From contig JBDLIH010000005.1 in NCBI GenBank assembly GCA_039714975.1, positions 12,857-76,856 of the forward strand: a stretch of 64,000 nt of DNA. The letters are read 5' to 3'. Numbering within the stretch: the stretch's first letter is position 1; each line of letters opens with the position of its first letter. The DNA comes from Pseudomonadota bacterium (GTDB taxonomy: Bacteria > Pseudomonadota > Gammaproteobacteria > UBA9214). Positions 40,510 to 63,163 of this stretch are shown here, one piece after another. A program made the translations under genes and the position numbers. Below the pieces are notes generated by a model. That model was not told the origin of the DNA and did not search any database. It saw only the letters and a list, made by a program, of their open reading frames with translations.

Positions 40510-40531
40510 GAATTAATCAGCGTTTCACTTT

Positions 40532-44448: not shown

Positions 44449-44449
44449 A

Positions 44450-45774: not shown

Positions 45775-45884
45775 AGTCTTTAATTTGTATTAACGACAGG
45801 CAGTCGCACGGATTAGTGGATTAAAAATCGAATCATACCTGTTTCAGGCTGTTTAGCCCAAGACTGTACACAGGTAATATTGTT

Positions 45885-45914
45885 AAAAAAAAAAGGGCGG
45901 AATAATCCGCCCTT
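45885..45914 (-). terminator. Rho-independent terminator after the small Cys-peptide gene
   Basis: The minus strand reads AAGGGCGG-attatt-CCGCCCTT followed by T10. Confidence 0.8.
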
Positions 45915-45965
45915 GGGGATGGAACTGGAAAGTGGGGGGTTCCAGTCCCTGGAAACCGTGCTGTA

Positions 45966-46178
45966 CTAGTTAGCGATGCAAACCTTGTTTTTATTACCCC
46001 CAGGGTAAGTCGTTCGCGCATTGCAAGCCGTCTTGTCGAGGATTTCATCGCAGGTTACCGTGCTTTCACAATCCGAATCGACTGCGTGGCTGGTGCTAAC
46101 CAGCATCAGACTGCCAATGGCCAGCAACAGGCCGCCAACAAGTAACAGGGTTCCTGCAATGCCGTTTCTCATGACCAT
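45966..46178 (-). CDS. Small secreted Cys-rich peptide (70-aa precursor)
   Basis: Signal/anchor GTLLLVGGLLLAIGSLMLVSTSHA. The mature ~37 aa has 4 Cys. It has its own sigma-54 promoter and intrinsic terminator. The C-terminus is homologous to the C-terminus of the cytochrome at 49265-51907. Confidence 0.7.
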   Translation of the reverse strand: MVMRNGIAGTLLLVGGLLLAIGSLMLVSTSHAVDSDCESTVTCDEILDKTACNARTTYPGGNKNKVCIAN

Positions 46179-46217
46179 CTTTTCTGAATAGTGTTTTCCA
46201 TATAATTAGTGAACAAG

Positions 46218-46232
46218 GCAAGCTTCATGCCA
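46218..46232 (-). promoter_or_regulatory. Sigma-54 (-24/-12) promoter of the small Cys-peptide gene
   Basis: The minus strand reads CTGGCATGAAGCTTGCC (TGGCAT-N5-TTGC). The -12 element lies 40 nt upstream of ATG 46178. Confidence 0.75.
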
Positions 46233-46308
46233 GGCACGGGTAAATCAGGAACTTTCTGGCAGAATAGGACGTTAGCTTACACATTCCTCCTGGTCCAGAT
46301 TAGAAGCA

Positions 46309-46356
46309 TGACAAATTTGTCAGGTATGTCACATACAGTCTGTCAGACAAATGACA
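46309..46356. promoter_or_regulatory. TGTCA/TGACA array (candidate enhancer/UAS), site A
   Basis: Five pentamers in 48 bp, including the perfect 14-bp palindrome TGACAAATTTGTCA (46309-46322) and TGTCAGACAAATGACA (46341-46356). Lies 75-125 bp upstream of the -24 box. Confidence 0.6.
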
Positions 46357-46578
46357 TTATTGGCAAAAAAAACCTGTATCAAGAAAGAAAACCTGCCAAG
46401 GGTACACATACACAGGGTTGTTTAATGAGGCAGCTGTAATTACGGGATGATTCATCGCGCCGGGGAGGGCGCTCTCACAGGTTGGTGAAATAATGCATGG
46501 TAGAAATGTTTGCCAGGCTGGTGTTGATCTGGAGAATAGGGTGTTCGGTCGTTATCACGCTTCACCCATGGACTAAAC

Positions 46579-47373
46579 ATGTTTCTGCGACTACCGAAAT
46601 TCATCTGTGCATTGTTCCTCGCCTGCATGGCCGGCTGTGCGCCCGACTCGGGCCAGCAACCGCAACTCATGGTGTTTGCCGCGGCAAGTCTGCGCGATGT
46701 CATGAGTGAAGTGGGTACGCGTTTTGAGCAGGAACACGGCATCCACGTCAACTACAACTTCGCCGGCAGTAATGTGCTTGCCCAGCAACTCCTTGCTGCC
46801 CCCAAGGCCGACCTCTTTCTCAGTGCCAACAAAGCCTGGATGCGGCGTCTGGGACAGGCTGAGCGGATCGTGCCCGGCTCGCACCAGGCGGTTCTGGGCA
46901 ACCGGCTCGTGGTCATCGCCAATCATGCCAGTATCCTGAAGGCTAATCCCCGGGAACTGTTCTGCACGCCCGGCTTTGAATACCTTTCCATTGGCAATCC
47001 GGAGGCAGTGCCCGCTGGAATCTATGCCAGGGAGTGGCTGGAAAAACTTCCCTGCGACGAGGGCAGCGCCTGGGACGCGGTTGCCGGCCGCATTGCGCCG
47101 GCGCCTGACGTGCGCGCGGCCCTGGGTCTGGTGGAAGCCGATCGGGATATTCCGGGAATTGTCTATGCCACCGATGCGGCCATGTCGGACAAGGTGCGCG
47201 TCATTCAGGAGGTGAGCGGTAACGATGCGCCCGTCATCCTCTATTACGCGGCCCTGGTGGACAACGAATCCAGCCATGAGCAGGCCAGGCTGTTTCTTCG
47301 TTTCCTGACCGGCGAGCAGGCCGCCGAAGTGTTCCGTCGTTACGGTTTTACCGGTCCGCAGAACCATGAATGA
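46579..47373 (+). CDS. modA: Molybdate ABC transporter substrate-binding lipoprotein ModA
   Basis: Lipobox [15 protein letters not shown], and the overall ModA pattern. Followed by modB and modC. Confidence 0.85.
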
Positions 47374-48046
47374 GGCCTCGCTGACGGCGCTGCTGTTGAC
47401 GCTGCAATATGCCTCGCTGGCCACGGCCATCGTCTTTGTACCCGGCATGCTCATTGCCTATGTGCTGGCACGTTTTTCCTTTCCCGGCAAGGTCTTCGTC
47501 AGTGCCCTGACGAGCCTGCCCCTGGTCCTGCCGCCCACTGCGGTGGGTTATCTGTTGCTGCAGATGCTCGCCACTGACGGGATTCTCGGCAGGGAGATTC
47601 TGGGTGTCGACCTGGACATTCTGTTGACCGGAAAAGCGGTCGTCGTGGCATGCGCGGTGATGTCGGTGCCGCTGATTATCCGGACTGCCCGGATCGCCTT
47701 CGAGGGGGTGAATGACCGCTACGAGGCTATGGCGCGCACTCTGGGTTATGGACCTGTAGAAACCTTTCTGCGTTTCACCTTTCCACTGGCGGCACGCGGC
47801 CTGCTGGCGGCGATGATCCTGGGTTTCACCCGCGCCATGGGCGAGTTTGGTGTGACCGTCACGATTGCCGGCAACATCCCCGGCCGCACCCAGACCCTGG
47901 CCTCTGCCATCTTCAGTGCCCAGCAGGTCGGCAACGATCACGAGGCCAATTTCCTGGTTCTCGTTGCCCTGGCGACCGGCTTTTGTGCGATCCTGGCGGC
48001 CGAGTTCCTTTCGCTACGGGGCGCGCGTAGACGCAAATCCCCTTGA
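47366..48046 (+). CDS. modB: Molybdate ABC transporter permease ModB
   Basis: Five/six-TM permease with the conserved loop ...[24 protein letters not shown]. Confidence 0.85.
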
Positions 48047-49146
48047 GCAACGGCCATGAAATTCGGGCTAAGCTGAATCTGCCCCTCGATCGATTCACCC
48101 TGTCAGTGGATCTCAAGCTGCGCCGGCATGTGACGGGTATCTTTGGGGCTTCGGGTTCCGGAAAGACCAGCCTGCTGGAGACTGTTGCCGGACTCCGCCG
48201 CAGTGCGCAGGGCATGCTCCGTCTGGGTGACCAGCTGTGGCAGGACTCTTACCGGGGCGCCTTCATGCCGCCTGAACGCCGCAATATCGGTTATGTGCCC
48301 CAGGATGCCCTGCTGTTTCCACACCGGAATGTGCGTGCGAACCTGCTTATTGGCCAGCGCCGGGCGCGGTGCCAGGGTCAGGATGTCGAGGCCCTGCAGC
48401 AGGAAGTGATCGCCTTGCTGGAACTGGATGCCCTGCTGGAGCGCAACGTCGACACTCTCTCGGGAGGGGAGCGCCAGCGGGTGGCCTTGGGTCGGGCTCT
48501 GTGTTCCGGACCGCGGCTGCTGCTGATGGATGAGCCACTGGCTTCCCTCGACCTGGGTATGCGGCGCAAGTTGTTGCCCTTTCTGCGCACGATCCGCCAA
48601 TCCTTCGACATCCCCATGCTATTGGTCTCACACGACCCAATTGAGGTTCAGGCCCTGTGTGATGAGTTGGTGGTCCTGCAGGATGGTCAGGTCATTGCCC
48701 AGGGTGAACCCCGGGTTACCCTGATGCAGGCGTCCCGTGATGCGGCGGAATTTGCGCATTTGGTCGAAAATGTACTGCCTTGCCGCTTTGAGCGTCATGA
48801 GGGCGAGGCAACTCTGGTCCGTATCGGGCTTGAGGGCGATGGCCCGCTGCTGACACTGCCCCGGGTGAGCGGGGCGGGTGCAAGCGCGCAGATGATTGCC
48901 GTGCGCAGCCGGGACATTATCGTATCCAATACCCGGCCATACGGTCTCTCGGCCCGCAATGTCCTGCCCGGTGTGGTGCGGCGGGTGGCAGCGGCCGGCA
49001 AGAAATACCTGGTCTTTTGCGCAGTAGACCGGAGCGCGGTGGAACTGGCCGTGGAAGTCACGCTGGCCTCGCTGCAGGAACTGGATCTCAAGCCGGAAAC
49101 CCCGGTGTTTCTTATTATCAAGGCAACTACCCTGGAACTCTGCTGA
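48043..49146 (+). CDS. modC: Molybdate ABC transporter ATP-binding protein ModC
   Basis: Walker [37 protein letters not shown], and a C-terminal Mop/TOBE-like ~130 aa. Confidence 0.85.
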
Positions 49147-49264: not shown

Positions 49265-51907
49265 CTAGATCGGGCTACAGACCTTGTTCTTGTTGCTATA
49301 GCTGCAGGTGGCCTGCGCGTTGCAGGAGGTCTTGTCGCCGTTGTACTGCGAGCAGTCGACCTGCTCGCAGACAGGATCTCCGCCGCAGTTGTCGATGTCA
49401 TCACAGTCGACCAGTCCGTTGCAGTCGTTGTCAACACCGTCATCACAGGTCAGCTCCGTCGGCCCTTCCGGTGTACAGACGTTCGACACACACTGGCCGT
49501 TCTTTGGGCTGCCCTGCCAGTCACAGACAGGATCATTATTGCAGCTACCCTTGTCTTCGTGTATGGAGCAACCCTGGCCTGTTAGGCAGTCGGTATCCGA
49601 CGCATCGGTAAAACCATCACAGTCGTTGTCGACACCGTCAGTGCAGAAAGTTTCCTGTGTTTCCTGGCCGGGGGTCGGATTGCAGACCGGCGGGGTACCC
49701 CATTCGACCGAGTACATGACCACCGGCGGCACCATCTTGTAGTCGCCGTTGATCATCTGCACGCCGGTGATTGGCGCGCCGGTACTCTGGACAACGTCGG
49801 CATTGAGCCAGGCATCCATCATGGCGTCACCCTGATTGCCGAGGAACGCGTTCTCCCCGGTGTTGGCCATCTGCAGGAACTGTATGTATTCCCAGCTGGT
49901 GCCCTGATAGAGCAGGTCGATGGTGGCATGGACAGCACCGATTGGCGGGTTGAGCAATACATCGTCCGCGTGCTCGTAGGTATCGCCTGTCCTGGTATAA
50001 CGGGTTTCCGGCACCGGCAGTGCGTTGCGCTTCTTGGCTTCGGTGTAGCTCATCTGATACGGCGGAATGCGGTTGTCCTTGGATACGTAGTTGTTGAGCG
50101 CAAAATGGAAGGTCTCATGGTAGTCGCCCGAGCAATCAGGATACTGGACGGGATCGTCGAGCAGGAACTGACTGACAGTACAGTCTGGCAGACCCGTTAA
50201 GCGGTCATAGCTGAGCGCGAAGTCCGGGTCTTGCACGGCCTGCACGATAACAGCCCATTCCCTGGTGATGGCGTAGTGCGCTTCGTAGATCTCGGTGTTG
50301 GTGCCATCCAGCTTGAGGATGGTTTCCACGGCATCGGCCTGACCGTCACCGTCGAGGTCCATGTCGGTCTGCAGGCTGCCGTACGCGCCATCTTCTCCAA
50401 CCAGGGCGCCTTCACTGTCATACCACTTGATGTTCAGCCACATGCGGCGTCCTTCAGGGTAGCCGGTGATCAGCTTGTGGCCGGTCAGGTTGGTGACCGT
50501 GACGGTGTTGCCCGTTACCGACAGGGCACCCGCTTCACGCAGATGCTTGGTGGCGCGTTCCTGGCCGAGGTCCATTGCCAGCAGCTGGGTGCTGTTCAGA
50601 CCACCGCCTACACGCAGCGTACCGACGTCAGGCCGATCCTGGTACTGTGCCATGCTGGCGAACCAGTAGTTGCCGCCGGTGTGGTCATGGCGCGGCAGGT
50701 CGGACCGTGTCTTGACGTTCTTGTTGCAACCTTTGCCGGTAGTCGGGCGCATATGGCAGCTCTGGCAGCTGAATTTACGCGGTGTACCGTCAGCATAGTC
50801 ACCTTCGATTATGCTTGAGTCATTTGGGTCACCCGGATCTGCCGCGATGGCGGCCTGGTAGGTGACTTCAAGAGAACCGCCCGCCACCTGCAGGTCGAGC
50901 GGGAGATCTTCATTGAATCGGCCAACGCGCATGTTTGAAAGCGGGCTGGACTTGTATTCGCTGAAGGTACGTTCGACGATGCCGTAGGCATACGGCGGGT
51001 TGTTGAACGCGGCCTTGTTGACGATGGCGCCGCCCAGGCAGCCGCCGCCGACTGCGGACAGGTCGCCGCCCTCGGGAAACGGCAGGATGGTGTTGCCATT
51101 GTCATCGACACAGTCGAAATCACGACTTGAAATAACTGTTGCGTCTGTAGGCGCCAGACTCTGGGTGCCATGGTTGCCGGCGAGGTCACCCACCGCTGAG
51201 TTGGACACGTCGTGGCAGCTTCCGCAGAAATCCGGGTCGCGGTGCCATGCTGACTGTCTGAACTGGTGGCGTGCTTCGGCATCATCCTCAGCGTATGGTC
51301 CCAGTTTTACATTGACGTCAGGCCACAGCGAGAGCATGCCGCTGCCGTAGAAGCCTTCGCCAGCCGAGCCGGTCTTCGTACATTTGTCAGGGACGTTTGG
51401 ATCGGGCTCACAGTTGGCGATAAACGGCGAGTTCATCATGCCCTGCAGTATGGGGTCGGAATTGTTCGGGTTGGTCGCGGCATGGCAGGTATCGCAGTCG
51501 ATGCCGTTATCATCGCTCGCTGCCAGGCCGGAACCGTCGGTCGGTGTGGAGCGGCCATCATACCAACCCTTGGCGCTGTGGCAGCGGATGCAGAGATCGC
51601 CCGCGCCGTCGAAGTCCTGCTCGGCAATGGCCAGCGTGGCCCAGAACACCGGGTCACGTCCGGCGTTACCCATGGCGGCGCCGCGCCAGCCCGTGGCAGG
51701 TTCGGCGCCCGGGTCGTCGAGGTTGTATCCGGCGTGGCAGTTGTCGCACTTGTCCGGTGACTCGAAATTCCCGACTTCACCCGGCTGGGTGCCGGGCATC
51801 TTGATTTCGTTAGGCACAACACCAGCTGCTTGCGCAGTGATTGCGAATATTAGTGTCAGGCAGGCGAGTAGTGCACCTATAGGCAGGTCTTTGGTGAGGC
51901 TTGTCAT
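49265..51907 (-). CDS. Secreted five-heme c-type cytochrome with C-terminal Cys/Asp-rich (MopE-like) repeats
   Basis: Signal peptide ...IFAITAQAAG. Five CXXCH motifs (CDNCH, CIRCH, CDTCH, CGSCH, CQSCH). The C-terminal ~125 aa contains CTDGVDNDCDGFTD and CDDGVDNDCNGLVD repeats. Confidence 0.85.
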   Translation of the reverse strand: MTSLTKDLPIGALLACLTLIFAITAQAAGVVPNEIKMPGTQPGEVGNFESPDKCDNCHAGYNLDDPGAEPATGWRGAAMGNAGRDPVFWATLAIAEQDFDGAGDLCIRCHSAKGWYDGRSTPTDGSGLAASDDNGIDCDTCHAATNPNNSDPILQGMMNSPFIANCEPDPNVPDKCTKTGSAGEGFYGSGMLSLWPDVNVKLGPYAEDDAEARHQFRQSAWHRDPDFCGSCHDVSNSAVGDLAGNHGTQSLAPTDATVISSRDFDCVDDNGNTILPFPEGGDLSAVGGGCLGGAIVNKAAFNNPPYAYGIVERTFSEYKSSPLSNMRVGRFNEDLPLDLQVAGGSLEVTYQAAIAADPGDPNDSSIIEGDYADGTPRKFSCQSCHMRPTTGKGCNKNVKTRSDLPRHDHTGGNYWFASMAQYQDRPDVGTLRVGGGLNSTQLLAMDLGQERATKHLREAGALSVTGNTVTVTNLTGHKLITGYPEGRRMWLNIKWYDSEGALVGEDGAYGSLQTDMDLDGDGQADAVETILKLDGTNTEIYEAHYAITREWAVIVQAVQDPDFALSYDRLTGLPDCTVSQFLLDDPVQYPDCSGDYHETFHFALNNYVSKDNRIPPYQMSYTEAKKRNALPVPETRYTRTGDTYEHADDVLLNPPIGAVHATIDLLYQGTSWEYIQFLQMANTGENAFLGNQGDAMMDAWLNADVVQSTGAPITGVQMINGDYKMVPPVVMYSVEWGTPPVCNPTPGQETQETFCTDGVDNDCDGFTDASDTDCLTGQGCSIHEDKGSCNNDPVCDWQGSPKNGQCVSNVCTPEGPTELTCDDGVDNDCNGLVDCDDIDNCGGDPVCEQVDCSQYNGDKTSCNAQATCSYSNKNKVCSPI

Positions 51908-52149: not shown

Positions 52150-53007
52150 TCAGATTATGTCATGGCGTAACGCAAGACCAACGGCTTCTGTGCGGCTATG
52201 TACCCCCAGCTTCAGGAACATGTTCTTGAAATGGTTGCGTACGGTCTCGGCACTGATAAACAATTGTTTGGCAATTTGCGCGGTCTTCACTCCCTCTGAC
52301 GCCATGTTCAGCAATTGTTTTTCCCGGGGCGTCAGGCGACTGAAACATGTGTCGGGATGTGTATCGGTATTCTTCGTATTGGCCATCCGTTGCAGCAGTT
52401 GCCGGGTACTAATGTGCCGCAGGCTGAAAAAGACGCCAACGTTATCGGTATTCTGCTGTAATTCAGCCGGTGTGTAGTAAGCGCCCACATTGACCATAAT
52501 GGAATTACCGTTCTCGTGATCCACCATCATGTCGATATTCCCGGCCGCCGGCCTGCCGCTAGCCCTTTGGGAGAAGGGGCAATCGTGTCCACAAATGGCG
52601 TTTCCATGCAGGCCGACGCTGCACAGCACCCCGGCGCACGCGGTATTCAGGATATCTTCCCGGGTATGTCCCAGCAGATTTTCGCAACTGCTGTTCCAGA
52701 AGCGGATTCTTTTCTCACCATCAATGCCAAATACAGCATCTGTGCTCTGTTCAAAGACCTGGTACATGCCATTCATCATCTGGTTTCCCTTTAATGCATT
52801 ATCTGGAACCCATCCTTGTTGTTTATCAAACAGCCTTGTCCCGGTAACGATATATTCGGATGCACCAAACGTGCCAGAAATCTGTTTCGTATAAACAGAT
52901 GAATCTAAAGGTGTAAAATCACGGCTGCTCAGATCGTTCTGATCGAACATGACATAAATGACATATGTAAATGCCGATATGACGTTATTGGCATATTTTG
53001 GTGACAT
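52150..53007 (-). CDS. PAS-domain LuxR/FixJ-type (HTH) transcriptional regulator
   Basis: PAS core ...STDAVFGIDGEKRIRFWNSSCENLLGH... with a four-Cys cluster CAGVLCSVGLHGNAICGHDCP. The C-terminal HTH is LTPREKQLLNMASEGVKTAQIAKQLFISAETVRNHFKNMF. There is no receiver domain and the start is uncertain. Confidence 0.8.
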   Translation of the reverse strand: MSPKYANNVISAFTYVIYVMFDQNDLSSRDFTPLDSSVYTKQISGTFGASEYIVTGTRLFDKQQGWVPDNALKGNQMMNGMYQVFEQSTDAVFGIDGEKRIRFWNSSCENLLGHTREDILNTACAGVLCSVGLHGNAICGHDCPFSQRASGRPAAGNIDMMVDHENGNSIMVNVGAYYTPAELQQNTDNVGVFFSLRHISTRQLLQRMANTKNTDTHPDTCFSRLTPREKQLLNMASEGVKTAQIAKQLFISAETVRNHFKNMFLKLGVHSRTEAVGLALRHDII

Positions 53008-53237
53008 TAACTGACCAGGGAGGGAGGTTTTCCTCGTACGGTTTTGCCTGGTGCACTTTATCGAATATGACCCATGTGACGAGATTTATGACTCAAACGG
53101 GTCATTCATTCCGTATGGAGTAACCGCCAGAATCATTACCCATGACCAGTTGCCTGTGACGCCAGTGGTGTCGCAGGGTACGTGGTCCGGATAACGATAG
53201 TTCAACTAATTTTGGTCCGGTGACAGGAGGACAGGGG

Positions 53238-56030
53238 ATGGGCATTAAACGGCGTGTATTTCTGAAGATGCTGGCCGGGACGACGGTCACGGCGGCCTCC
53301 ATCAAGGCTTTTGGACTGGCTGGTGATAGCCTGAAGGTTGTTAGCGATCCCTATGCCTATCCACCGCAATACCGGGGCTGGGAGGATCTGTACCGTGACG
53401 AATGGACCTGGGACAGTGTGGCGCGCAGCACCCACGGCGTAAACTGCACCGGGTCGTGTTCGTGGAAAGTCTATGTCAAGGACGGCATGATCATGCGCGA
53501 GGAGCAGGCCGCCGACTTCCCCGTGATTGATCCGGCACTGCCCGACCTTAACCCGCGCGGTTGTAACAAGGGCGCCTGTTATACCGCCGAGTATGTCAAT
53601 GGCGACCGGCGCATCAAGTACCCGCTGCGTCGTACCGGCCCGCGTGGCTCCGGGCAATGGGAACGGATTTCCTGGGACACGGCGCTGACCGATATTGCCG
53701 ACCAGGTTATTGCAAATATCCAGGACAGTGGCCCGGATTCGCTTACCTTCTTCTCGCCCATCCCGGCCATGAGCCCGGTCTCCTTTTCGGCAGGTATCCG
53801 TCTGGCACACTTGCTTGGCGGCGTGGCCTGCAGTTTCTATGACTGGTACTGCGACCTGCCTCCCGGTTCGCCCATTACCCTGGGCGAGCAGACCGACGTG
53901 GCCGAGTCCACCGACTGGGTGAATTCCAAATACATGATCCTGTGGGGTTCGAACCCGGTGCAGACGCGCATCCCGGATGCCCACTTTGTTACCGAGGCAA
54001 AATACAACGGGTGCAAGGTACTGGCTATCTATCCTGATTTTGCCTCCAGTTCTATCCGTGCTGATCGCTGGCTGTCCGTTGAACCGGGCACCGATGCGGC
54101 CCTGGCGCTGGCCATCTGCCAGCACCTGATCGCAAGCGGCCAGTACGACGTGGGTTACCTGCAGGAGCAGACCGACATGCCGTTCCTGGTGGACACCGTC
54201 ACCGGCAAGTATCTGCGTGAGGCCGATGTGGTCACCGGTGGTGCTGAAGATCGGTTCTACGTCTGGTCCGGTGGTCAGCCTGAACTGGCACCTGATAGCG
54301 GTCTGGACCTGGGAAATCTCTCGCCAGTGCTCAACGGTGGTAGCTACGACGTCGACACTCTGAGCGGCTCGGTAACCGTAGAGACGGTATTTGACCGCCT
54401 CGCGACGCGCCTGCAAGCGAATGATCCATATGGACTGGTCTCGGCCGAGACCGGCGTAAGCGGCCAGGTTATCAGCGAGATCGCCGATGAAATCGGCGCC
54501 GCCGGTATCAGCAGTGGCGGCCAGGTGATGATTATGCACGGTGCCGGCACCAATCACTGGTACCACAACGACCTCAACAACCGTGCCATGCTGCTGATGC
54601 TGAGCCTGCTCGGTGCCATCGGCAAGAACGGCGGTGGTTTCAACCACTACGTGGGCCAGGAGAAGATCTGGCCGGGTGCTGGTCTAGGGAAGCTGTCATT
54701 CCCGCTGGGCACGGCATTTCAGCGTTTCCAGAACACCACCCTGTGGACCCATGTACATGCCGAACTTGATGATCAACCTGCCGCCGACATGAGTCAGACC
54801 ACCCGTGGTTATATGTTTGACTCGGTGGCCAATGGCTGGATGCCGCTTTACCCCGAAGGGGCGATGGGCAACGACAAGGCCAGCTTCGTAGCCAATGGGG
54901 TTCCGGTGAAGGACCCCAAGATGATGTTCATCTGGCGCGCCAACTGGTTCAACCAGGCCAAGGGCAATAACTACATAGAGGCCAGCCTGTATCCCAAGCT
55001 GAACATGATCGTTGACCTCAACTTCCAGATGGATACCACGGCTTTTTATGCCGACATCGTGCTGCCTTCAGCGAGCCACTACGAGAAGCACGACCTCAAT
55101 ACCACGGACATGCACAGTTTCTGCCATCCGTTCAATCCGGCGATCCCGCCCATGTTTGAATCCAAAACCGACTGGCAGATCTTCCAGGCGCTGGCGGCGA
55201 AGATCGAGGAGCGGGCGGGTGGTCTCACCTACGACGATTCGAAAGCGCCGGGCGGGGAACGTGACCTGTCGACCCTGGCAAGCGATTTTACCAATAATGG
55301 CGCCATTGCGGCGGATATCGATGCCGCCCAGTTGATTCTCGACAATGCCCCGGAGACCGTTGGCATGACCATGGCGGGCATTACGGCACAGCCGCAACGC
55401 TTCAACGCCACCACTAACTGGACCAGCAATATCGAAGAGGGACGGCCCTACACGGCCTTCCTGAAACACACCGAAGGCGATAAGGATCTATACCATACTC
55501 TCACCGGCCGTCAGCAATACCTGATTGAGCACGAGTGGTTCGTGGAGGCCGGTGAGGAACTGCCAACCTATAAACCGCCGGTGTTGGCAGCAGGGGAGGA
55601 GAGCTTCCCGCTGCTCTACAACACCCCGCACGGCCGCTGGGCCATCCATTCGACCTGGCGAAATGCCAAGCAGATGCTGCGCCTCAATCGCGGTGGCCCG
55701 ATCTGCTACATGCATCCCTCGGACATGGCCAGTCGCGGCCTGGTGGATGACGACTGGGTGAAGATGCACAACAACCACGGCCAGGTCATCGTCCGGGTCA
55801 AGGCAATGGAAAGCGAGAAGGCAGGCCGTGTCACCATGTTTCACAGCTGGGAGCGTTACGTCGGTGTGAAGGGGCAGATGGCCAACTTCAACAGCGTGAC
55901 GGGCATCCGTATCAAGCCCACCCAGCTTGCCGGGGGCTACGGTCAACTGAAATTCAAGCTCAACTACTGGGGGCCTACCGGCGTGCAGCGGGATACGCGG
56001 GTTGAAGTGGAGAAATACGTCGAACCCTGA
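53238..56030 (+). CDS. Type II DMSO-reductase-family molybdoenzyme, catalytic alpha subunit (Tat-exported, NarG/EbdA/SerA-like)
   Basis: AGGAGG lies 7 nt before ATG 53238. Tat signal MGIKRRVFLKML. FS0 motif HGVNCTGSCSWKVYVKDG. The NarG-like Mo-ligand region is SFYDWYCDLPPGSPITLGEQTDVAESTDW. Confidence 0.85.
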   Translation: MGIKRRVFLKMLAGTTVTAASIKAFGLAGDSLKVVSDPYAYPPQYRGWEDLYRDEWTWDSVARSTHGVNCTGSCSWKVYVKDGMIMREEQAADFPVIDPALPDLNPRGCNKGACYTAEYVNGDRRIKYPLRRTGPRGSGQWERISWDTALTDIADQVIANIQDSGPDSLTFFSPIPAMSPVSFSAGIRLAHLLGGVACSFYDWYCDLPPGSPITLGEQTDVAESTDWVNSKYMILWGSNPVQTRIPDAHFVTEAKYNGCKVLAIYPDFASSSIRADRWLSVEPGTDAALALAICQHLIASGQYDVGYLQEQTDMPFLVDTVTGKYLREADVVTGGAEDRFYVWSGGQPELAPDSGLDLGNLSPVLNGGSYDVDTLSGSVTVETVFDRLATRLQANDPYGLVSAETGVSGQVISEIADEIGAAGISSGGQVMIMHGAGTNHWYHNDLNNRAMLLMLSLLGAIGKNGGGFNHYVGQEKIWPGAGLGKLSFPLGTAFQRFQNTTLWTHVHAELDDQPAADMSQTTRGYMFDSVANGWMPLYPEGAMGNDKASFVANGVPVKDPKMMFIWRANWFNQAKGNNYIEASLYPKLNMIVDLNFQMDTTAFYADIVLPSASHYEKHDLNTTDMHSFCHPFNPAIPPMFESKTDWQIFQALAAKIEERAGGLTYDDSKAPGGERDLSTLASDFTNNGAIAADIDAAQLILDNAPETVGMTMAGITAQPQRFNATTNWTSNIEEGRPYTAFLKHTEGDKDLYHTLTGRQQYLIEHEWFVEAGEELPTYKPPVLAAGEESFPLLYNTPHGRWAIHSTWRNAKQMLRLNRGGPICYMHPSDMASRGLVDDDWVKMHNNHGQVIVRVKAMESEKAGRVTMFHSWERYVGVKGQMANFNSVTGIRIKPTQLAGGYGQLKFKLNYWGPTGVQRDTRVEVEKYVEP

Positions 56031-56132: not shown

Positions 56133-57149
56133 ATGGCTAAAGGTGGAGGTGGTGGTGGCAATCAGATTGCGATGCTCATCAATCTTGATAAGTGTCTTGG
56201 CTGCCATACGTGTACGGTTGCTTGCAAGAACCTGTGGACCAACAAGGGTGGCCGCGAGTACATGTACTGGAACAACGTTGAATCGCGTCCCGGCGAGGGT
56301 TACCCGAGGAACTGGGAAGGTATGGGCGGTGGCTTCCAGGGCGGTCAACCTGACCCGGGTATCTTCCCGGCAAACAGCGACTACGGCCTGGGCGACCAGG
56401 GTCAGATCGTCGATTTCGATTATCCGACACGCCTGGGTCATGATCCGGACAACGTGACCCCGAATCCCGGTATCGTCGATGCCGACCCGCAACCGGAGTG
56501 GCTGTCCAACTGGGACGAGGAGCAGGGTGACGGTACGTTCCCGAACAGCTACTACTTCTATCTGCCGCGTATGTGCAATCATTGCGATCGGCCCGCGTGT
56601 CTGGAGTCCTGTCCGCGCAAGGCCATCTACAAGCGCGAGGAGGACGGCATCGTGCTGGTGGACCAGGATCGCTGCCGCGGCTACCGCCAGTGCGTGCGCA
56701 CCTGCCCCTACAAGAAAGTCTTCTTCAACAGCGAGACGCTGAAATCGGAGAAGTGCATCTTCTGCTACCCGCGTATCGAAGCTGGCGAGGCCACCGCCTG
56801 TGCGGTGCAATGCCCCGGCCGCGTCCGCCATGTGGGTTTCGTGAGCGACGCTTCCTCGGATGTCTACAGGCTGGCCAAGGACCTGAAGGTGGCCCTGCCG
56901 CTGCATCCGGAGTACGAGACCGGACCCAACGTCTACTATATACCGCCCTTCTCGGGGCCTTCACAGGTCGATTCGAACGGAAATCTGATAAACGTGGAAC
57001 GGATACCGGTGGCCTACCTGCGCTTCCTGTTTGGCGATGAAGTCGATGCGGCCATCGCCACCCTGCGAGACGCCAGGGCTAACGGCGACCCGGACGGCAT
57101 CCTTGCCATCCTGAATTCCAATAATCGTTACGACATACCGCAACCGTAG
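56133..57149 (+). CDS. Molybdoenzyme beta subunit (NarH/EbdB-like, four Fe-S clusters)
   Basis: CLGCHTCTVACK, CNHCDRPACLESCP, CRGYRQCVRTCPY and CIFCYPRIEAGEATACAVQCP. Confidence 0.9.
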   Translation: MAKGGGGGGNQIAMLINLDKCLGCHTCTVACKNLWTNKGGREYMYWNNVESRPGEGYPRNWEGMGGGFQGGQPDPGIFPANSDYGLGDQGQIVDFDYPTRLGHDPDNVTPNPGIVDADPQPEWLSNWDEEQGDGTFPNSYYFYLPRMCNHCDRPACLESCPRKAIYKREEDGIVLVDQDRCRGYRQCVRTCPYKKVFFNSETLKSEKCIFCYPRIEAGEATACAVQCPGRVRHVGFVSDASSDVYRLAKDLKVALPLHPEYETGPNVYYIPPFSGPSQVDSNGNLINVERIPVAYLRFLFGDEVDAAIATLRDARANGDPDGILAILNSNNRYDIPQP

Positions 57150-57159
57150 GGGGCTAGTC

Positions 57160-58392
57160 ATGAAAACGTCTATGATGAAACACAACTGGTTACGCCTCCT
57201 TTGCATCCTCGTGTGTCTCTCGTTCACCGCGGGCATGAGCGCCGGCGCCTTTGCGGCCCCTCCGGATCGAGACGGCGATGGTTACGATAAGCGATCCGAC
57301 TGCGACGACAATAATGCCGCCGTCAATCCGGGCGCAACAGAAGGCCCGTTTGGTGACGCGACCTGTTCCGATACCTGGGACAACGACTGCAATGGATTGA
57401 CCGATGGAGACGATCCGCAATGTCAGGGCGGTGTCACATGCACCGACAACGACCTGGATGGTTACGGCAGTCCGGGCGATCCCTCCTGTCCGAACGGCGG
57501 AGCCACGGACTGCGACGACAATAATGCTGCCGTCAACCCGGACGCGACGGAAGGCCCGTTTGGTGACCCAACCTGTACAGATACCTGGGACAACAACTGT
57601 AACGGATTGACCGACGTTGATGACCTGAGTTGCCAGCTTGTCGACGAGGTCTGCAATGATGGCTTCGACAACGACGGTGATGGCAATATTGACTGCGCCG
57701 ATTCGGACTGTGCCGGCGAATCTGCCTGCACCGCGGGCAATAAGCTGACGGTCAACCGAGTTACCGGCACCGTGCTGGGCATCGGGCCGGATGACGGTCT
57801 GTGGAACGCCACCGCAGCGACCAGCTACAACCTGGCCTGGCGCGACGATATCAATGATACCTGTCCGCCGGAGCAAAGCTGCAGTGGTAACCAGCCGAGC
57901 TTGACGGTCAAGGCCATCCACAACGGCACCGACATCGCCTTCCTGATGTCCTGGACCGATGTCGACCAGAGCAGCGAGGTCTATCAGCCGTCGGAATTCG
58001 GCGACCGCGCCGTGATCATGCTCAACGCCAACCGCATTTGCCAGATGGGCAGTCCGACCAATCCGACCAATATGTGGTTCTGGAATGCGGCGGACAAGAC
58101 CCAGGAGACCGAGGGATCATATGGCAGCGTGCAGAACCTGCTCGGGGGTGGGATCGGCACTATCACCCATACCGATGGCGACGACAACATCCAGGCAGTC
58201 AGCAGCTACGCGGGAGGCATGTGGCAGGTGGTAATGAGTCGTCCGCTGGCCGCGATTGATCCGCTTGATCAGTTCGAGTTTACTCTTGGTGTGACCACCG
58301 ATGTGTCCTATGCCGTGTATGATGGAGCGTTCAAGCAGCGCAACGGGTCCAAGTGGATCAGCGGCCGGGAAGCGATAAACATCGCACCTTGA
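57160..58392 (+). CDS. Molybdoenzyme gamma subunit (EbdC/DdhC/SerC-like heme-b domain) with N-terminal Cys/Asp-rich repeat extension
   Basis: Sec signal ...GMSAGAFAAPP. Residues ~35-200 hold three DxDxDG...CDDNNAAVNPxATEGPFGDxTCxDTWDNxCNGLTD-type repeats. The C-terminal ~210 aa is EB_dh-like (LTVKAIHNGTDIAFLMSWTD, FGDRAVIMLN, MWFWNA, GMWQVVMSRPL). Confidence 0.75.
   Translation: MKTSMMKHNWLRLLCILVCLSFTAGMSAGAFAAPPDRDGDGYDKRSDCDDNNAAVNPGATEGPFGDATCSDTWDNDCNGLTDGDDPQCQGGVTCTDNDLDGYGSPGDPSCPNGGATDCDDNNAAVNPDATEGPFGDPTCTDTWDNNCNGLTDVDDLSCQLVDEVCNDGFDNDGDGNIDCADSDCAGESACTAGNKLTVNRVTGTVLGIGPDDGLWNATAATSYNLAWRDDINDTCPPEQSCSGNQPSLTVKAIHNGTDIAFLMSWTDVDQSSEVYQPSEFGDRAVIMLNANRICQMGSPTNPTNMWFWNAADKTQETEGSYGSVQNLLGGGIGTITHTDGDDNIQAVSSYAGGMWQVVMSRPLAAIDPLDQFEFTLGVTTDVSYAVYDGAFKQRNGSKWISGREAINIAP
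57298..57414 (+). repeat. Intragenic direct repeat, copy 1 (~117 bp)
   Basis: gactgcgacgacaataatgccgccgtcaatccg...acctgggacaacgactgcaatggattgaccgat.... By eye it is highly similar to 57508-57624, offset by 210 bp (70 codons). Confidence 0.85.
57508..57624 (+). repeat. Intragenic direct repeat, copy 2 (~117 bp)
   Basis: gactgcgacgacaataatgctgccgtcaacccg...acctgggacaacaactgtaacggattgaccgac.... Confidence 0.85.
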
Positions 58393-58402
58393 TTGCCGGG
58401 CA

Positions 58403-59092
58403 ATGACTACAGAAGCAAAGGAGAACAACATGTCGGGACAAGCTGCACTGGAAATGACGAAGCTCACGGACGAGGATCTTGTCGATGTTAACCGCAGTCG
58501 GCTGTACAAGCTGCTTGCCCTGGGGTTCGGGTTTCCGTGCAAGGATTTGCATGATGCACAGGCCGAACTCCGGGAAATCGCGGCAGCGCTGTATCCCGAT
58601 CTGGAACTGAACCGGGAAGATGTGAACCTGCTGGCCCCGGAAATCGAGTCGTTGTACATCAATGTGCTCGATGGGCATAACCAGAAAAAGGCCTGCAGGC
58701 CCTACGAAACTGCCTGGCGAGAGGGCGAACGGTCCATGCAGCAGTGGGAAGTGAAGAAGTTATACCAGATATTCGGTCTGGAGCTGAACAAGGAAACCAA
58801 CGAGTTGCCGGACCATATCGTGAACGAACTGGAGTTCATGCATTTCCTCAGTCATCAGGCAGTGGAGGCCAGCAGGGGGCTGCTGGGTGATGGCGACAGC
58901 CGCAAGCAGTATGTGCATGCGCAGAAGGACTTTCTGGAGCGGCACCTCAGTCTGTGGGTGCCAAAATTCTGCAAGGCACTGCAGGAAAAGATTGACGAAC
59001 CGTTCTACATGAATCTCGCAGCCCTCACGGAACAGTTTGTCACGGATGACCTCGAGTGGGTGCAGGAGCAGTACGAGGCCGAGAACGGCTAG
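58403..59092 (+). CDS. TorD/NarJ/EbdD-family molybdoenzyme maturation chaperone
   Basis: RSRLYKLLALGFGFP and ELPDHIVNELEFMHFL. Its position is directly after the structural genes. Confidence 0.8.
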   Translation: MTTEAKENNMSGQAALEMTKLTDEDLVDVNRSRLYKLLALGFGFPCKDLHDAQAELREIAAALYPDLELNREDVNLLAPEIESLYINVLDGHNQKKACRPYETAWREGERSMQQWEVKKLYQIFGLELNKETNELPDHIVNELEFMHFLSHQAVEASRGLLGDGDSRKQYVHAQKDFLERHLSLWVPKFCKALQEKIDEPFYMNLAALTEQFVTDDLEWVQEQYEAENG

Positions 59093-59113: not shown

Positions 59114-60109
59114 ATGCCTAACCTTGTTGATTCGTTCGGGCGCTGCATCGATTACCTGCGGATTTCAGTTACCGACCGTTGTAATTACCACTGCTTCTAC
59201 TGCCGGCCGGCCGGTGCGGTGGTCGATGGCAGCCATCATGACTTTCTCAGGCATGAGGAAATAGCTCGCCTGGTCCGCCTGTTTTCCGAACTGGGTGTGA
59301 GCAAGGTGCGGCTCACCGGTGGTGAACCGCTGCTGCGGCGCAATCTTGCAGGGTTGGCGACCATGATCACCGGCCTGCCGGGGATTGCCGATCTTTCCCT
59401 GTCCACCAACGGCCATTTGCTCGAACGTTTCGCGGCACCGCTGCAAGCGGCGGGGATAGGGCGCGTCAATATCTCCCTGGATTCCCTGGATCAGGATAAT
59501 TTCTCGGCCATTACCTGTGGTGGCGATCTCGACTGCGTCATCAAGGGAATCGAGGCCGCTCAGGCAGCCGGTATGACACCGATAAAGATCAACATGGTGG
59601 TCATGAAGGGGGTCAATGAACACGAGATCGATAGCATGCTGGACTTCGCGCTGGAGCGGGGTCTGGAGCTGCGTTTTATTGAAACCATGCCGGTGGGAAC
59701 GGCCGGTGCCGGTAACATGGTCCATTATTATCCGGCTGCCCGGATTCTCGAGCATATTCGCGCGCATTACGGTTCCCGGCTTGTTCCCGTGCAGGGACAA
59801 CGCGGGCCGGGACCCGCACGTTACTATCAGGCCGGCGACAGTGATGTAAAGGTCGGGGTGATATCCGCGGTATCCAGGCATTTCTGCGAGAGCTGTAATC
59901 GCGTGCGCCTGACAGCGCGCGGCGATCTGGTGCTTTGTCTGGGTCACGAGGACCGGGTTTCATTGCGCAGTGCGCTGCGTGACGGGCGTTCCGATGCCGG
60001 GATCAAGCAGGACATCCTGGCAGCCATCGCGAGAAAACCGGAACACCATGATTTCAGCAGTAAGGCTGACCAGCCGGTTACCGCTCAAATGGTCACCCTG
60101 GGTGGATGA
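59114..60109 (+). CDS. moaA: GTP 3',8-cyclase MoaA (molybdenum cofactor biosynthesis)
   Basis: Radical-SAM CNYHCFYC and LTGGEPLLR. The C-terminal cluster is CESCNRVRLTARGDLVLCL. Confidence 0.9.
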   Translation: MPNLVDSFGRCIDYLRISVTDRCNYHCFYCRPAGAVVDGSHHDFLRHEEIARLVRLFSELGVSKVRLTGGEPLLRRNLAGLATMITGLPGIADLSLSTNGHLLERFAAPLQAAGIGRVNISLDSLDQDNFSAITCGGDLDCVIKGIEAAQAAGMTPIKINMVVMKGVNEHEIDSMLDFALERGLELRFIETMPVGTAGAGNMVHYYPAARILEHIRAHYGSRLVPVQGQRGPGPARYYQAGDSDVKVGVISAVSRHFCESCNRVRLTARGDLVLCLGHEDRVSLRSALRDGRSDAGIKQDILAAIARKPEHHDFSSKADQPVTAQMVTLGG

Positions 60110-60174
60110 AGCCCGGGCGGCACGATGACAACGGGTTCGAGCGTGAAGATAAAAAAGGCAGGAAACTGATTGGG

Positions 60175-60801
60175 ATGTCAGAGCACGGTGAGACAGGCAG
60201 GGTTCAGCCACTGACAGCAGCGCTGTTCAGTCTCATATTCGTGTGCGCATGCGTTCCTGTTTCCGCTGATGAATCGGTCGAGGCCGCCCGGGCGGCGGCT
60301 CACGCCGCCGAGGCAGCCAGAGAGGGAACCGGGATTCCTGCGCTTCCGGAGAAACAGATGGCTGCCTACCTGGATGGCCGGGCGATGTGGATGGCCAGTG
60401 TGGCAGAGCTGAATCATTATCCCGACCCGCGGCAGGTACTGGAACTCGCAGCGAAGCTTGAACTCTCCGCGGAACAGCAACAGGCCACCATGAAGCTTTA
60501 TGATGAAACACGCCCGGAGGCAATCCGTCTTGGCAAACAACTGGTAGAACAGGAGCAGAGACTTAACCGGGTCTTTGCATGGGGACAGGCATCAGGAAAA
60601 AATATCAGGCAAGTCGTGACTGACATCGGCGCACTTAAGGCAAAACTCAGATTAACGCATCTGCTGGCCCACATTAGTACAAGAGAACTGCTCACGGAAG
60701 ATCAGGTCAAGCGCTATGATGAACTTCAGGGCTATGGCGAAACAACCGGGGAGAGCGGTAACAGGATGGGCTGCAATGCCATGCATCATCACGGGCGCTG
60801 A
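60175..60801 (+). CDS. Periplasmic CpxP/Spy/ZraP-like protein with His-rich C-terminus
   Basis: Signal peptide ...LFSLIFVCACVPVSA. LTxxQ-type helices (LSAEQQQATMKLYDE, LTEDQVKRYDEL). The C-terminus is ...CNAMHHHGR. The start could instead be ATG 60106 (ATGA-coupled to moaA). Confidence 0.6.
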   Translation: MSEHGETGRVQPLTAALFSLIFVCACVPVSADESVEAARAAAHAAEAAREGTGIPALPEKQMAAYLDGRAMWMASVAELNHYPDPRQVLELAAKLELSAEQQQATMKLYDETRPEAIRLGKQLVEQEQRLNRVFAWGQASGKNIRQVVTDIGALKAKLRLTHLLAHISTRELLTEDQVKRYDELQGYGETTGESGNRMGCNAMHHHGR

Positions 60802-61622
60802 GAGGGTTTATTGTCCGAAGGTTGCTGCTCCAGCGCCTGTTTGATAGCACTATTGAACACGTTTACTGGTTGTGCACCAATAACGACCTTCCCGGTAATC
60901 TTCTTGCTGTCCGATTTCCCGATAATAAAGCTGGGTGTACCTGTCAATTTCACACCCCTGGCGTCTTGTGCATCCTTGTCGATTGCGTCGAGATGCCGGT
61001 CGCTGTTCAGGCAAGCATTGAAGGCTTCAACGTCCAGTGACAGCTCTTGGGCATAACCGGGCAGGTGTTGCACACCAATTGCTTTCGGGTTCTCGAACAG
61101 CGTTTCACGCATTTCCCAGAACTTGCCCTGGTCGCCCGCGCACAGCGCGCCCTGGGCTGCCTTGCGCGCGTCCTTGTGGAATGCCAGCGGCAGATTGAGG
61201 GCGACCCAGCGCACCTTGCCGGTATCGATGTAGTTTTTCTTTAAATGGGGGAACGTGGTCTTGCTGAAGCGCAGGCAAAACGGGCACTGGTAATCGGCGA
61301 ATTCCACCACGGTGACAGGGGCATCCGCGGAACCCATGGTTGGCCGACCCTCGATGTTCATCGTGGCGACCGTCGGTTTGGAAGGCCGCTTGGCGGTGCG
61401 TCCACCCTGTTTCTCAATCTTCTCCAGCACCTGTCTGATCGCCTTGAGTTCAAGCAGGATGGCATCCATCTTCACGTCGGGGTTAGTAGCCGAATCCACG
61501 GCTTCCTCCGTCATGGCTGCCGGTGACGTCAGCAGGGCAACAGCGGTCAGTGCCAGCGGAATACAGGTTTTAAACAACCGGGAAAGTCGATTGTTAGCGT
61601 TCGTGAAGTTTTGAATAGCCAT
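60789..61622 (-). CDS. DsbA-family thiol:disulfide oxidoreductase
   Basis: Signal peptide and thioredoxin-fold FADYQCPFCLRF. The 3' end overlaps the convergent gene by 13 nt. Confidence 0.8.
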   Translation of the reverse strand: MAIQNFTNANNRLSRLFKTCIPLALTAVALLTSPAAMTEEAVDSATNPDVKMDAILLELKAIRQVLEKIEKQGGRTAKRPSKPTVATMNIEGRPTMGSADAPVTVVEFADYQCPFCLRFSKTTFPHLKKNYIDTGKVRWVALNLPLAFHKDARKAAQGALCAGDQGKFWEMRETLFENPKAIGVQHLPGYAQELSLDVEAFNACLNSDRHLDAIDKDAQDARGVKLTGTPSFIIGKSDSKKITGKVVIGAQPVNVFNSAIKQALEQQPSDNKPSQRP

Positions 61623-61756: not shown

Positions 61757-63163
61757 ATGAAAGATTCAATTTCCAATATCGTTAATTTGGTTGATCCGGT
61801 TACACCGGTCTCGGTTGAGTTGCAATCACTGGTTGACAGTCATGAACAACCGTTTGTCGTGATCGACAGGGATTACCGCATACTGGCAATCAACAGTGCC
61901 TACGAAAAGACCTTTGGCGTACGCTGTGACAAGGCCGTTGGATTGCCGTGTTACAAGGTCAGTCACGATAGCGAGGTACCTTGCCATGAATCCGGCGAAG
62001 ACTGCCCGCACGCCAATATGTTCGAAATAGGTAAATCTGATTCTTGCCTGCACGTCCACTTTGATTCAGACCACCGGATGTGTCAGGTCCGGGTAACTGC
62101 CTTTCCACTGCGTGGCAATAATGGCGAACTCTATATGGGTGAGCTGATTCAGCAGCTCTCGGGGCCTGAAGATCGCCGCGTCAATGGCCGGCGCATGGTT
62201 GGCCAGACACCCCCGTTTCTTGCCTGTATTGATCAGATGAAAATGATTGCAGCAGCATCGGCGCCGGTACTACTGCAGGGAGAAACCGGCACCGGCAAGG
62301 AGCTGGCGGCGCACTTTATTCATAGTCATTCCATGCGTCGTGAACAGCCGTTTCTTACCGTGGACTGTACGGTACTGACAGAACCCCTGTTCGAGGCCGA
62401 GGTCTTCGGGCATGCGCGCGGTGCCTATACCGGCAGTGTCGGTGACCGGACCGGTCTGTTCGAACAGGCCGATAGAGGCACCCTGTTTCTGGACGAGGTG
62501 GGTGAGTTGCCGCTGTCCCAGCAGGCCAAGCTGTTGCGAGTGCTGGAAACGGGGCAGTATCGCCGTGTCGGTGGTAAAGGGACTCGCAATGCAGACGTGC
62601 GCATTGTTTGTGCCACCAACCGGCACTTGTGGGAGTTGGTGAGTGCCGGTCGGTTCCGTGAGGATCTTTACTATCGGATCGCCTGTCTGTCTGTACGCTT
62701 GCCTGCACTGCGGGAACGGCTGGATGATATCGAGGTGCTGGCGCCTGATCTGCTGGGCCCGGTCAGCCATACCATGAATCAGAAGTTCAAACTGACCCAG
62801 GCGGCCATAGAGCGTCTCAAATTATATGATTACCCCGGTAATGTGCGTGAACTCCGCAACATCCTGTTTATTGCCGCCACACACTCCAGCGCTGGCGAGA
62901 TTGATGACACTATGATAGAAACCGTGCTGCAACAACTTGCCCATGGCAGGAATGACCGGAATCAGAAAGCGCCTGCGGAGGCCCAGCCGCTTGTGACAGA
63001 AGCATCACCCGGTAAGGCTGGCAAAGGATTGCATGAAGTGGAGGCAAAGCACATCGCTGAGTTGTTAGTGCAGCACCATGACAACCGCAGGCAGGTCGCG
63101 GCGGTACTCGGTGTCAGCGAACGCACCCTGTATCGGAAACTCAAGCGTTATAATCTGAACTGA
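61757..63163 (+). CDS. Sigma-54-dependent transcriptional activator (PAS - AAA+ - Fis HTH), no receiver domain
   Basis: PAS-like N-terminus with a four-Cys cluster ([29 protein letters not shown]). AAA+ [14 protein letters not shown], sigma-54 contact loop GAYTGS, and C-terminal [19 protein letters not shown]. Confidence 0.9.

Follow-up and report, generated by a model that had tools for sequence, protein, structure and literature searches.

A predicted calcium- and disulfide-stabilised Cys/Asp stalk on the haem-b gamma subunit of a PcrA/NarG-like molybdoenzyme from a Pseudomonadota bacterium

The stretch of DNA analysed here, referred to throughout as the window, comprises 64,000 nucleotides of contig JBDLIH010000005.1 (positions 12,857 to 76,856 of the forward strand) from the Pseudomonadota bacterium assembly GCA_039714975.1, and carries an operon for a molybdoenzyme of the type II dimethyl sulfoxide (DMSO) reductase family. 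Our subject is the gene for its haem-b gamma subunit (57160-58392, + strand), an open reading frame (ORF) of 410 residues composed of a signal peptide, a Cys/Asp-rich extension of 162 residues (residues 33-194) and a haem domain of the EB_dh family. Related acidic units end a second protein of the window, a cytochrome of 880 residues with five CxxCH motifs encoded on the other strand (49265-51907, -). The signal peptide of gamma, read from the sequence, is of the Sec type (residues 1-32, with cleavage between ...SAGAFA and AP; 57160-57255, +) and is conserved in orthologues both with and without the extension. It ends in an AxA cleavage site and has no L-x-[GAS]-C lipobox, which rules out a lipoprotein anchor.

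The haem domain occupies residues 195-410 (57742-58392, +), an extent of 216 residues set by alignment to relatives. Pfam EB_dh (PF09459) matches residues 239-397 well above its cutoff (E 9.4e-22; 78.6 bits vs 33.3), while TIGR03477 (DMSO_red_II_gam), aligned to residues 199-401, reaches 92.5 bits against a curated cutoff of 169.85, and by these profile scores gamma is a divergent member of the wider EB_dh family, lying outside the curated TIGR03477 subfamily. The domain aligns to EbdC (PDB 2ivf_C) and to Kuenenia NxrC (7b04_C), and the predicted axial haem ligands, Met296 (58045-58047) and Lys398 (58351-58353), which align to Met108 and Lys201 of EbdC in 2ivf_C, are invariant in alignments of 23 and 40 sequences. 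An AlphaFold2 (AF2) model of full-length gamma, built from the 40-sequence alignment, gave block-mean predicted local distance difference test (pLDDT) values mostly of ~80-97 in this part, with some dips, and Foldseek matched the model to 2ivf_C (E 4.3e-16; template-modelling score TMt 0.79), as expected of an EbdC-like fold. On this evidence gamma is most likely an ordinary EbdC/NxrC-type haem-b subunit, predicted to bind haem b and to pass electrons to or from the beta subunit. The C-terminal 216-residue fold, the Met/Lys ligands and the Sec signal peptide are common to it and to the EbdC, SerC, ClrC, DdhC and NxrC gammas, whose operons also have the alpha-beta-gamma-delta order seen in the window; what these proteins lack is the 162-residue Cys/Asp stalk between signal peptide and EB_dh.

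Three repeat units make up that extension. Unit A1 (residues 36-89; 57265-57426, +) consists of a DRDGDG loop followed by a MopE-type unit, DCDDNNAAVNPGATEGPFGDATCSDTWDNDCNGLTDGDDPQC, has four Cys, and is defined by a PF11617 match at residues 47-82, by a direct repeat in the DNA and by a motif scan. Unit A2 (residues 93-159; 57436-57636, +) begins with CTDNDLDGYGSPGDPSC and continues as a duplicate of the A1 core (direct repeat at 57508-57636), with six Cys in all. Unit B (residues 162-190; 57643-57729, +), DEVCNDGFDNDGDGNIDCADSDCAGESAC, adjoins the EB_dh domain and is defined by NF033662, by a match to PDB entry 7plp and by conservation within the clade. PF11617 (Cu-binding_MopE, 'putative metal-binding motif') matches gamma in two stretches (E 1.6e-11; 44.7 bits vs a cutoff of 27) and NF033662 ('acidic double-disulfide repeat') matches residues 162-190 (43.5 bits vs 41), placing A1, A2 and B above the cutoffs. 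Tandem units in secreted proteins are likewise found in many members of these two families, from which gamma differs in having EB_dh as the partner domain. The extension as a whole contains 36 Asp, 4 Glu, 17 Asn, 22 Gly, 3 Lys plus Arg and an even number of Cys (14), for a net charge of about -37. Neither His nor Met occurs in residues 33-194, and a c-type haem is ruled out here by the lack of CxxCH.

The direct repeat (57298-57426 and 57508-57636) is 129 nucleotides long, with 83% identity between copies and a spacing of 210 nucleotides. Its 17 differing codons comprise 10 synonymous and 7 non-synonymous changes, so that 36 of the 43 residues of the A1 and A2 cores are the same; every Cys is kept and so are the acidic ligand positions. 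An earlier, sequence-only reading of this locus had noted a Cys/Asp-repeat extension ahead of the haem-b domain and a third, shorter unit within it, and both descriptions stand, with small corrections of extent for the former and with the motif of the latter, CNDGFDNDGDGNIDCADSDC, placed at 57652-57711 by the motif scan. The duplication it reported is real, though longer than the 117 bp given, and of its two near-identical 70-residue units the period is right, whereas the near-identity covers only the 43-residue core of each and the other 27 residues differ. A six-frame regular-expression scan of the whole window revealed no Cys/Asp motifs outside the gamma and cytochrome genes.

The fusion is rare. 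Among 5.8 billion proteins we found ~25 clusters (at 90% identity) that combine EB_dh with Cys/Asp repeats (P0001-P0025; 355-584 residues), all of them from metagenomes or metagenome-assembled genomes (MAGs). Across 185,579 species genomes the full form is present in one MAG only ('Pseudomonadota bacterium MAG113', GCA_039714155.1, locus L005; 87% identical) and a short form in one. The next gamma relatives, from Gammaproteobacteria vent MAGs and Thiogranum (42-47% identity), are devoid of repeats. We also searched 1.84 billion 50%-identity representatives by HMMER with the EB_dh domain only and surveyed the best 150 clusters, which have a median length of 292 residues. About a quarter are longer than 380 residues, mostly cytochrome c fusions with one or two CxxCH motifs; Cys/Asp units were present in just four of the 150 (P0014, P0004, P0016 and P0025), all from the query's own clade. 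Extensions are common in the EB_dh family only in the sense of cytochrome c fusions, not of Cys/Asp repeats, so the refuting condition named by the sequence-only reading does not hold, and its statement that EbdC/SerC/DdhC-type gammas do not carry such extensions is borne out by this survey of lengths and architectures, which shows the extension to be specific to one clade. Within the library that was searched, no paper describes a fusion between EB_dh and Cys/Asp repeats; the matches were confined to a teneurin phylogeny paper and a PmoD paper. Both domain families are known, and the architecture is already precomputed in databases; what is new is the clade-specific accretion of Ca2+-binding-type repeats on a haem-b subunit.

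Within this clade the EB_dh domains are 67-84% identical to that of the window, and the segment between signal peptide and EB_dh is very variable: P0023 (256 residues) has no extension, P0014 and P0019 (~275 residues) have one unit, and in P0012 (584 residues) the extension reaches ~340 residues. Distal units differ in both number and type, and the 'EGPxGDxTC' sub-type of A1 and A2 is confined, among gammas, to the window, P0001 and P0002. The proximal unit, E-x-C-x-D-G-x-D-N-D-x-D-x3-D-C-x-D-x-D-C-x5-C-x-x-G-N-[KR]-L, occurs with constant spacing in 21 of 22 informative representatives of the clade. Since the extension varies from 0 to ~340 residues among orthologues in which Met296 and Lys398 are invariant, the stalk is predicted to be accessory to electron transfer. 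It is not neutral, however, as comparison with the nearest relative, MAG113, gives 93% amino acid identity and a ratio of non-synonymous to synonymous substitution rates (dN/dS) of 0.11 for the extension, vs 84% and 0.25 for EB_dh; the extension is under purifying selection.

The chemistry of the stalk is best approached through unit B, which matches the C-rich domain of teneurin-4 (7plp; E 0.0018), a result that sharpens the likeness to MopE-type motifs and TSP3 repeats correctly pointed out by the sequence-only reading. The teneurin-4 domain binds three Ca2+ ions via E835, D840, D843, N844, D845, D847, D851, D854 and D856 (PMC9058538), and its six Cys form disulfides 1-3, 2-5 and 4-6 (Meijer et al. 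2022, PMC9058538). Two of the Ca sites have been equated with TSP3 sites (PMC9058538), and PF11617 and the teneurin C-rich core had already been linked (PMC3278476). All nine side-chain Ca ligands have their counterpart in unit B, residue by residue (E163, D167, D170, N171, D172, D174, D178, D181 and D183). Cys165, Cys179, Cys184 and Cys190 correspond to teneurin Cys 1, 2, 3 and 5; the Cys4 position is Ala185 and there is no Cys6. Unit B thus departs from the six-Cys, three-disulfide pattern, and because it keeps Cys 1, 2, 3 and 5 it would form exactly two disulfides, in agreement with the NCBIfam name of its family. In two gamma orthologues (P0024 and P0025; L003 2799-3866) Cys2 of the proximal unit is replaced by Leu and Cys5 is missing as well, a joint loss that fits the 2-5 pairing of teneurin.

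The core C-x-D-x2-D-N-D-x-D-x3-D-C-x-D-x-D-C is common to teneurin, unit B and the units of the cytochrome tail; beyond the number of disulfides, unit B differs from its teneurin counterpart in being bacterial, in standing in tandem with MopE-type units and in being carried on a redox subunit rather than an adhesion receptor. TSP3 repeats and dockerin Ca2+ loops resemble the stalk in their DxDxDG-type acidic loops, with or without disulfides, which fold only with Ca2+, but Pfam TSP_3 (PF02412) matched neither gamma nor the cytochrome at E≤0.01, and no dockerin or cohesin partner was identified. Given that unit B keeps the Ca ligands and four of the six teneurin Cys, calcium together with disulfides is the best supported chemistry for the extension, and we consider Ca2+ binding and a disulfide map of this kind likely. 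Copper binding by the extension is unlikely, because it contains neither His nor Met and its number of Cys is even. The 'Cu-binding' label of the PF11617 repeat is misleading in this respect, since the solved homologue binds calcium; the profile moreover covers little of MopE and is unspecific (PMC6189053).

Disulfides bring in the Dsb genes. A DsbA-like thioredoxin-fold protein is encoded after the operon in the window (60789-61622, -; PF13462 and PF01323), and such a gene follows the operon also on the P0010 contig and at L003 and L004 (L003 5744-6511). A DsbB gene lies directly upstream of alpha in two loci with repeat-bearing gammas, L087 and L088 (L087 8705-9214), and no Dsb genes were found near the repeat-free operons L007-L010. 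The window's DsbA-like protein is a candidate oxidase for the seven predicted disulfides of the extension, and the synteny is what a stalk requiring its own oxidative folding would lead one to expect. At locus L084, too, an orthologue of the cytochrome that stands alone is followed by a DsbA-like gene.

Taken together, these observations lead us to propose a modular stalk, inserted between the signal peptide and the haem domain, that would consist of three small Ca2+ units, coordinated by Asp and Asn carboxylates, and seven disulfides. Gamma would leave the cytoplasm unfolded through Sec, after which its stalk would be oxidised by the Dsb proteins encoded beside the operon and would then fold around calcium. 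The proximal unit B, a constant component of gamma in this clade, is probably a structural cap or linker on the haem domain, while the distal units would form a rigid, strongly acidic spacer of variable length which would take no part in electron transfer and which, we infer, may position, stabilise or dock the alpha-beta-gamma complex in the cell envelope. We hold this explanation, taken whole, with moderate confidence, seeing it as evenly balanced between right and wrong. Several observations weigh against it. The AF2 model of the extension is uninformative (pLDDT 35-65, no regular secondary structure) and shows neither a readable disulfide map nor a contact with EB_dh, although low confidence is expected if the fold is metal-dependent. 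The homology behind the calcium prediction spans ~30 residues and applies strictly only to unit B, the Cys of A1 and A2 being arranged differently. Close orthologues differ so much in repeat number that a single, fixed binding partner seems less likely, the Dsb association amounts to ~6 loci vs 4, with some contigs ending early, and a 'positioning or stabilising' role is unspecific. Finally, the module is strikingly often attached to c-type cytochromes: of the 80 proteins most similar to the extension (drawn from P0026-P0120), 39 contain one or more CxxCH motifs and 15 contain no fewer than three, which hints at a more specific, redox-related role that this explanation leaves outside.

The enzyme to which the stalk is attached has the layout of a type II DMSO reductase operon, with alpha, beta, gamma and delta in order. 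The molybdopterin alpha subunit (53220-56030, +) has a twin-arginine translocation (Tat) motif, KRRVFLK, and the FS0 motif H-x3-C-x3-C; it was identified through PcrA structures and TIGR03479, whose cutoff of 984.75 it exceeds with 1034.5 bits. The Fe-S beta subunit (56133-57149, +; TIGR03478 with E 8.9e-136, and Fer4_11) scores strongly but below the curated cutoff (452 bits vs 480.7), as does the NarJ/TorD-like delta chaperone (58403-59092, +; PF02613 and TIGR03482; 124.6 bits vs 152.3). The operon ends with MoaA (59114-60109, +), conserved in synteny and at 64-93% by tblastn, and is preceded by a divergently encoded PAS-LuxR regulator (52150-53007, -; Pfam GerE and PAS) whose upstream position relatives share, along with the gene order LuxR, alpha-beta-gamma-delta, moaA.

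Alpha scores ~860 bits against PcrA (4ydd/5e7o), ~520 against E. coli NarG and ~360 against EbdA. Testing the PcrA gate residues directly on the PDB sequences, we found that alpha keeps F164, Y165 and the Mo ligand D170, and that the position of W461 is Glu (nucleotides 54660-54662, residue ~481), the residue also present there in E. coli NarG ('HYVGQEK') and the 5e7o mutant; the aromatic gate F164/Y165/W461 is therefore incomplete. Beta and the delta chaperone resemble their PcrABCD counterparts in type. The window's gamma is a haem-b EB_dh protein, and PcrC is a multihaem c-type cytochrome. In the large ORFs annotated from ~27 to 64 kb we saw no Cld domain. A canonical perchlorate reductase is ruled out by the Trp-to-Glu change, the EB_dh-type gamma and the lack of cld in that interval. 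NarGHI differs in turn in that the window enzyme is, by its Tat motif, periplasmic.

Proteins at least 63% identical to alpha form 17 clusters, all environmental, and at ~50-55% identity these give way to a wide array of proteins of the 'nitrate reductase / nitrite oxidoreductase' type. By these comparisons the enzyme is an uncharacterised periplasmic, Tat-exported PcrA/NarG-like oxyanion oxidoreductase of the type II DMSO reductase family, and its substrate is probably a nitrogen oxyanion. At L087 (1-9214) and L088 (1-9416), where alpha is 85% identical, the upstream genes encode an ATP-citrate lyase, a NirB-like flavoprotein, a 10-haem cytochrome and a Tll0287-like protein, along with a cytochrome c, a globin, an ANTAR regulator and DsbB; this gene content hints at nitrogen-oxide metabolism in an autotroph using the reductive tricarboxylic acid cycle. 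At L007 10816-13754, in the repeat-free relative whose alpha is 72% identical, genes for a Phenol_MetA_deg outer-membrane channel-like protein and a CLC chloride-channel homologue come after the operon.

Downstream of moaA in the window lies a gene for a conserved periplasmic protein with LTxxQ-like motifs (60106-60801, +; start probably near 60232), matched weakly by PF13801 (E 4.5e-5) and ZraP. It is conserved after moaA in L001, L002 and L087, with 59-83% identity in L001 and L002, and its product is possibly a Spy/CpxP/ZraP-type periplasmic chaperone. The SET-domain gene that precedes its homologue in relatives is absent from the window. A PAS-sigma54 activator is encoded at 61757-63163. 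Directly upstream of the cytochrome and operon region are ccm genes (ccmA, ccmB and ccmF/G/H/I-type by Pfam; 38647-45774) and modABC (46579-49146), which make 38647-49146 a region apparently dedicated to the supply of periplasmic redox cofactors. Genes for a polyphosphate kinase, PitA/PhoU-like proteins and a CNNM/CorC protein lie further upstream (27-35 kb).

The cytochrome is built of a signal peptide and a conserved core (49688-51907, -), defined by homologues and invariant residues, in which CxxCH motifs at residues 54, 106, 138, 228 and 381 precede a beta-rich domain, and of a C-terminal tail (residues 741-880; 49268-49687, -) with 18 Cys. The core, 735 residues long, has over 4561 homologues (50-78% identity) in a very large, strongly conserved family in which dozens of residues are invariant; structurally we found a single relative, the pentahaem c552 of Thermochromatium tepidum (5ze8; E 4.5e-4), and that as a weak fold match. 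The sequence-only reading had the cytochrome ending in Cys/Asp units similar to those of gamma, and we did locate two such units (49586-49645 and 49385-49447), although the Pfam search for the MopE-type motif that it had called for separates the two proteins, gamma lying above and the cytochrome below the PF11617 cutoff (19.4 bits vs 27). NF033662 too stays below its cutoff in the cytochrome (32.7 bits vs 41) despite an E of 4.6e-8. The tail was modelled by AF2 with pLDDT 60-89, and Foldseek superposed one unit on 7plp (TMt 0.68, 46% identity). Two further 4-Cys modules of the form C-x8-C-x5-C-x-W/Y-x8-C (e.g. CSIHEDKGSCNNDPVCDWQGSPKNGQC; ~49490-49573 and ~49274-49357, -; residues ~779-806 and ~851-878), one separating the acidic units and one following them, are conserved in the tails of relatives and match no Pfam family (weakly DUF7107, E 0.024).

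Of the tails of the 120 best cytochrome relatives, 62 carry acidic Cys/Asp units, 28 are Cys-poor and 27 are Cys-containing tails of other kinds, while three relatives have none. The Cys-poor tails presumably correspond to the modules (cadherin-like/Big, PKD or TSP3) annotated by Pfam in the family, where TSP_3 (PF02412) is present in some orthologues (P0192, P0202 and P0231); the tails are interchangeable. At all three orthologue loci examined the cytochrome gene stands alone, sometimes beside a DsbA-like gene or a PAS-sigma54 activator and never beside a molybdoenzyme. The two loci with the 85% identical alpha and repeat-bearing gammas, L087 and L088, have other cytochromes, including the 10-haem one, without such a tail, and no member of the 880-residue family. 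A conserved linkage of this cytochrome to the operon was thus not found in the orthologue loci, in the operon relatives or at L087/L088. Nor is 'EGPxGDxTC' a private tag common to gamma and the cytochrome, as 32 of 80 unrelated repeat carriers have it.

These results bear on the possibility that the Cys/Asp units of gamma and of the cytochrome tail bind a common partner, whether each other, an envelope or outer-membrane scaffold, an exopolymer or a mineral. Such docking or tethering, by which the molybdoenzyme and its electron donor or acceptor would be held together much as dockerins and cohesins do in their assemblies, is in our estimation unlikely. It is favoured by the restriction of the motif to only these two genes of the 64 kb, ~5 kb apart around a shared regulator, and by the recurrence of the EGPxGDxTC sub-type in tails of the cytochrome family (P0130, P0134 and P0148), although the breadth of that sub-type among unrelated repeat proteins tells against a specific match. 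The alternative occupants of the tail position (cadherin-like, PKD, Big and TSP3) are all typical adhesion or surface modules, nearly half of the nearest repeat-bearing proteins have CxxCH, and the extension is under strong purifying selection; these points, too, would suit docking. Against it stand the lone cytochrome orthologues, the lack of tailed cytochromes at L087/L088, and those close gamma orthologues that have one unit or none. The same observations, together with the swappable tails and a gamma repeat segment that ranges from nothing to ~340 residues, leave little backing for the specific claim of the sequence-only reading that a shared module co-localises the enzyme with the cytochrome as its redox partner.

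The units might instead be selectively unimportant, promiscuous cassettes spread by recombination among secreted proteins and tolerated after a signal peptide, serving at most as a solubility tag. The wide variation of repeat number and type among close orthologues, zero included, the recent duplication within the gene and the mosaic tails of the cytochrome family all agree with such a view, but the dN/dS of the extension is lower and its amino acid identity higher than those of the haem domain, all Cys and acidic ligand positions were kept between the duplicated units, and the proximal unit holds its spacing in nearly all clade members, so we regard neutral decoration as quite improbable.

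It is also conceivable, though we think it highly doubtful, that PF11617/teneurin-like units provide the extracytoplasmic redox proteins of uncultured marine sediment bacteria with a general, Ca2+-dependent means of assembly or anchoring, whereby the stalk would recruit a normally soluble molybdoenzyme, with the tailed cytochrome, to an electron-transfer scaffold in the envelope, on the outer surface or bound to a mineral. This view draws on the c-type cytochromes that make up about half of the nearest carriers. If true, respiratory enzymes would here follow a 'cellulosome-like' logic. A role in metal handling, in which the extension would sequester, deliver or sense copper or another transition metal, draws on the PF11617 match, the Cys- and Asp-rich composition and the weak Metal_resist/ZraP-like gene downstream, but is very unlikely indeed, because the absence of His and Met, the even Cys count and the adjacent Dsb genes point to disulfides rather than thiolate ligands, and in the one homologue of the unit with a solved structure three Ca2+ are bound via carboxylates. 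The Cu site of MopE itself lies in the C-terminal domain of that protein and uses His and kynurenine.

Our preferred explanation remains a stalk stabilised by calcium and disulfides on an otherwise ordinary haem-b subunit, and the system would gain considerably in interest should its repeats turn out to serve redox proteins as docking modules. The analysis also flags two uncharacterised families, namely the PcrA/NarG-like clade (17 clusters at ≥63% identity) and the pentahaem cytochromes with their >4,500 relatives and swappable surface-type tails. The haem-b gammas of type II molybdoenzymes are treated as simple soluble electron-transfer modules; a clade whose gammas carry a selected stalk of the Ca2+/disulfide type, accompanied by Dsb genes, suggests that the cell may control the place or the stability of the enzyme in its envelope.

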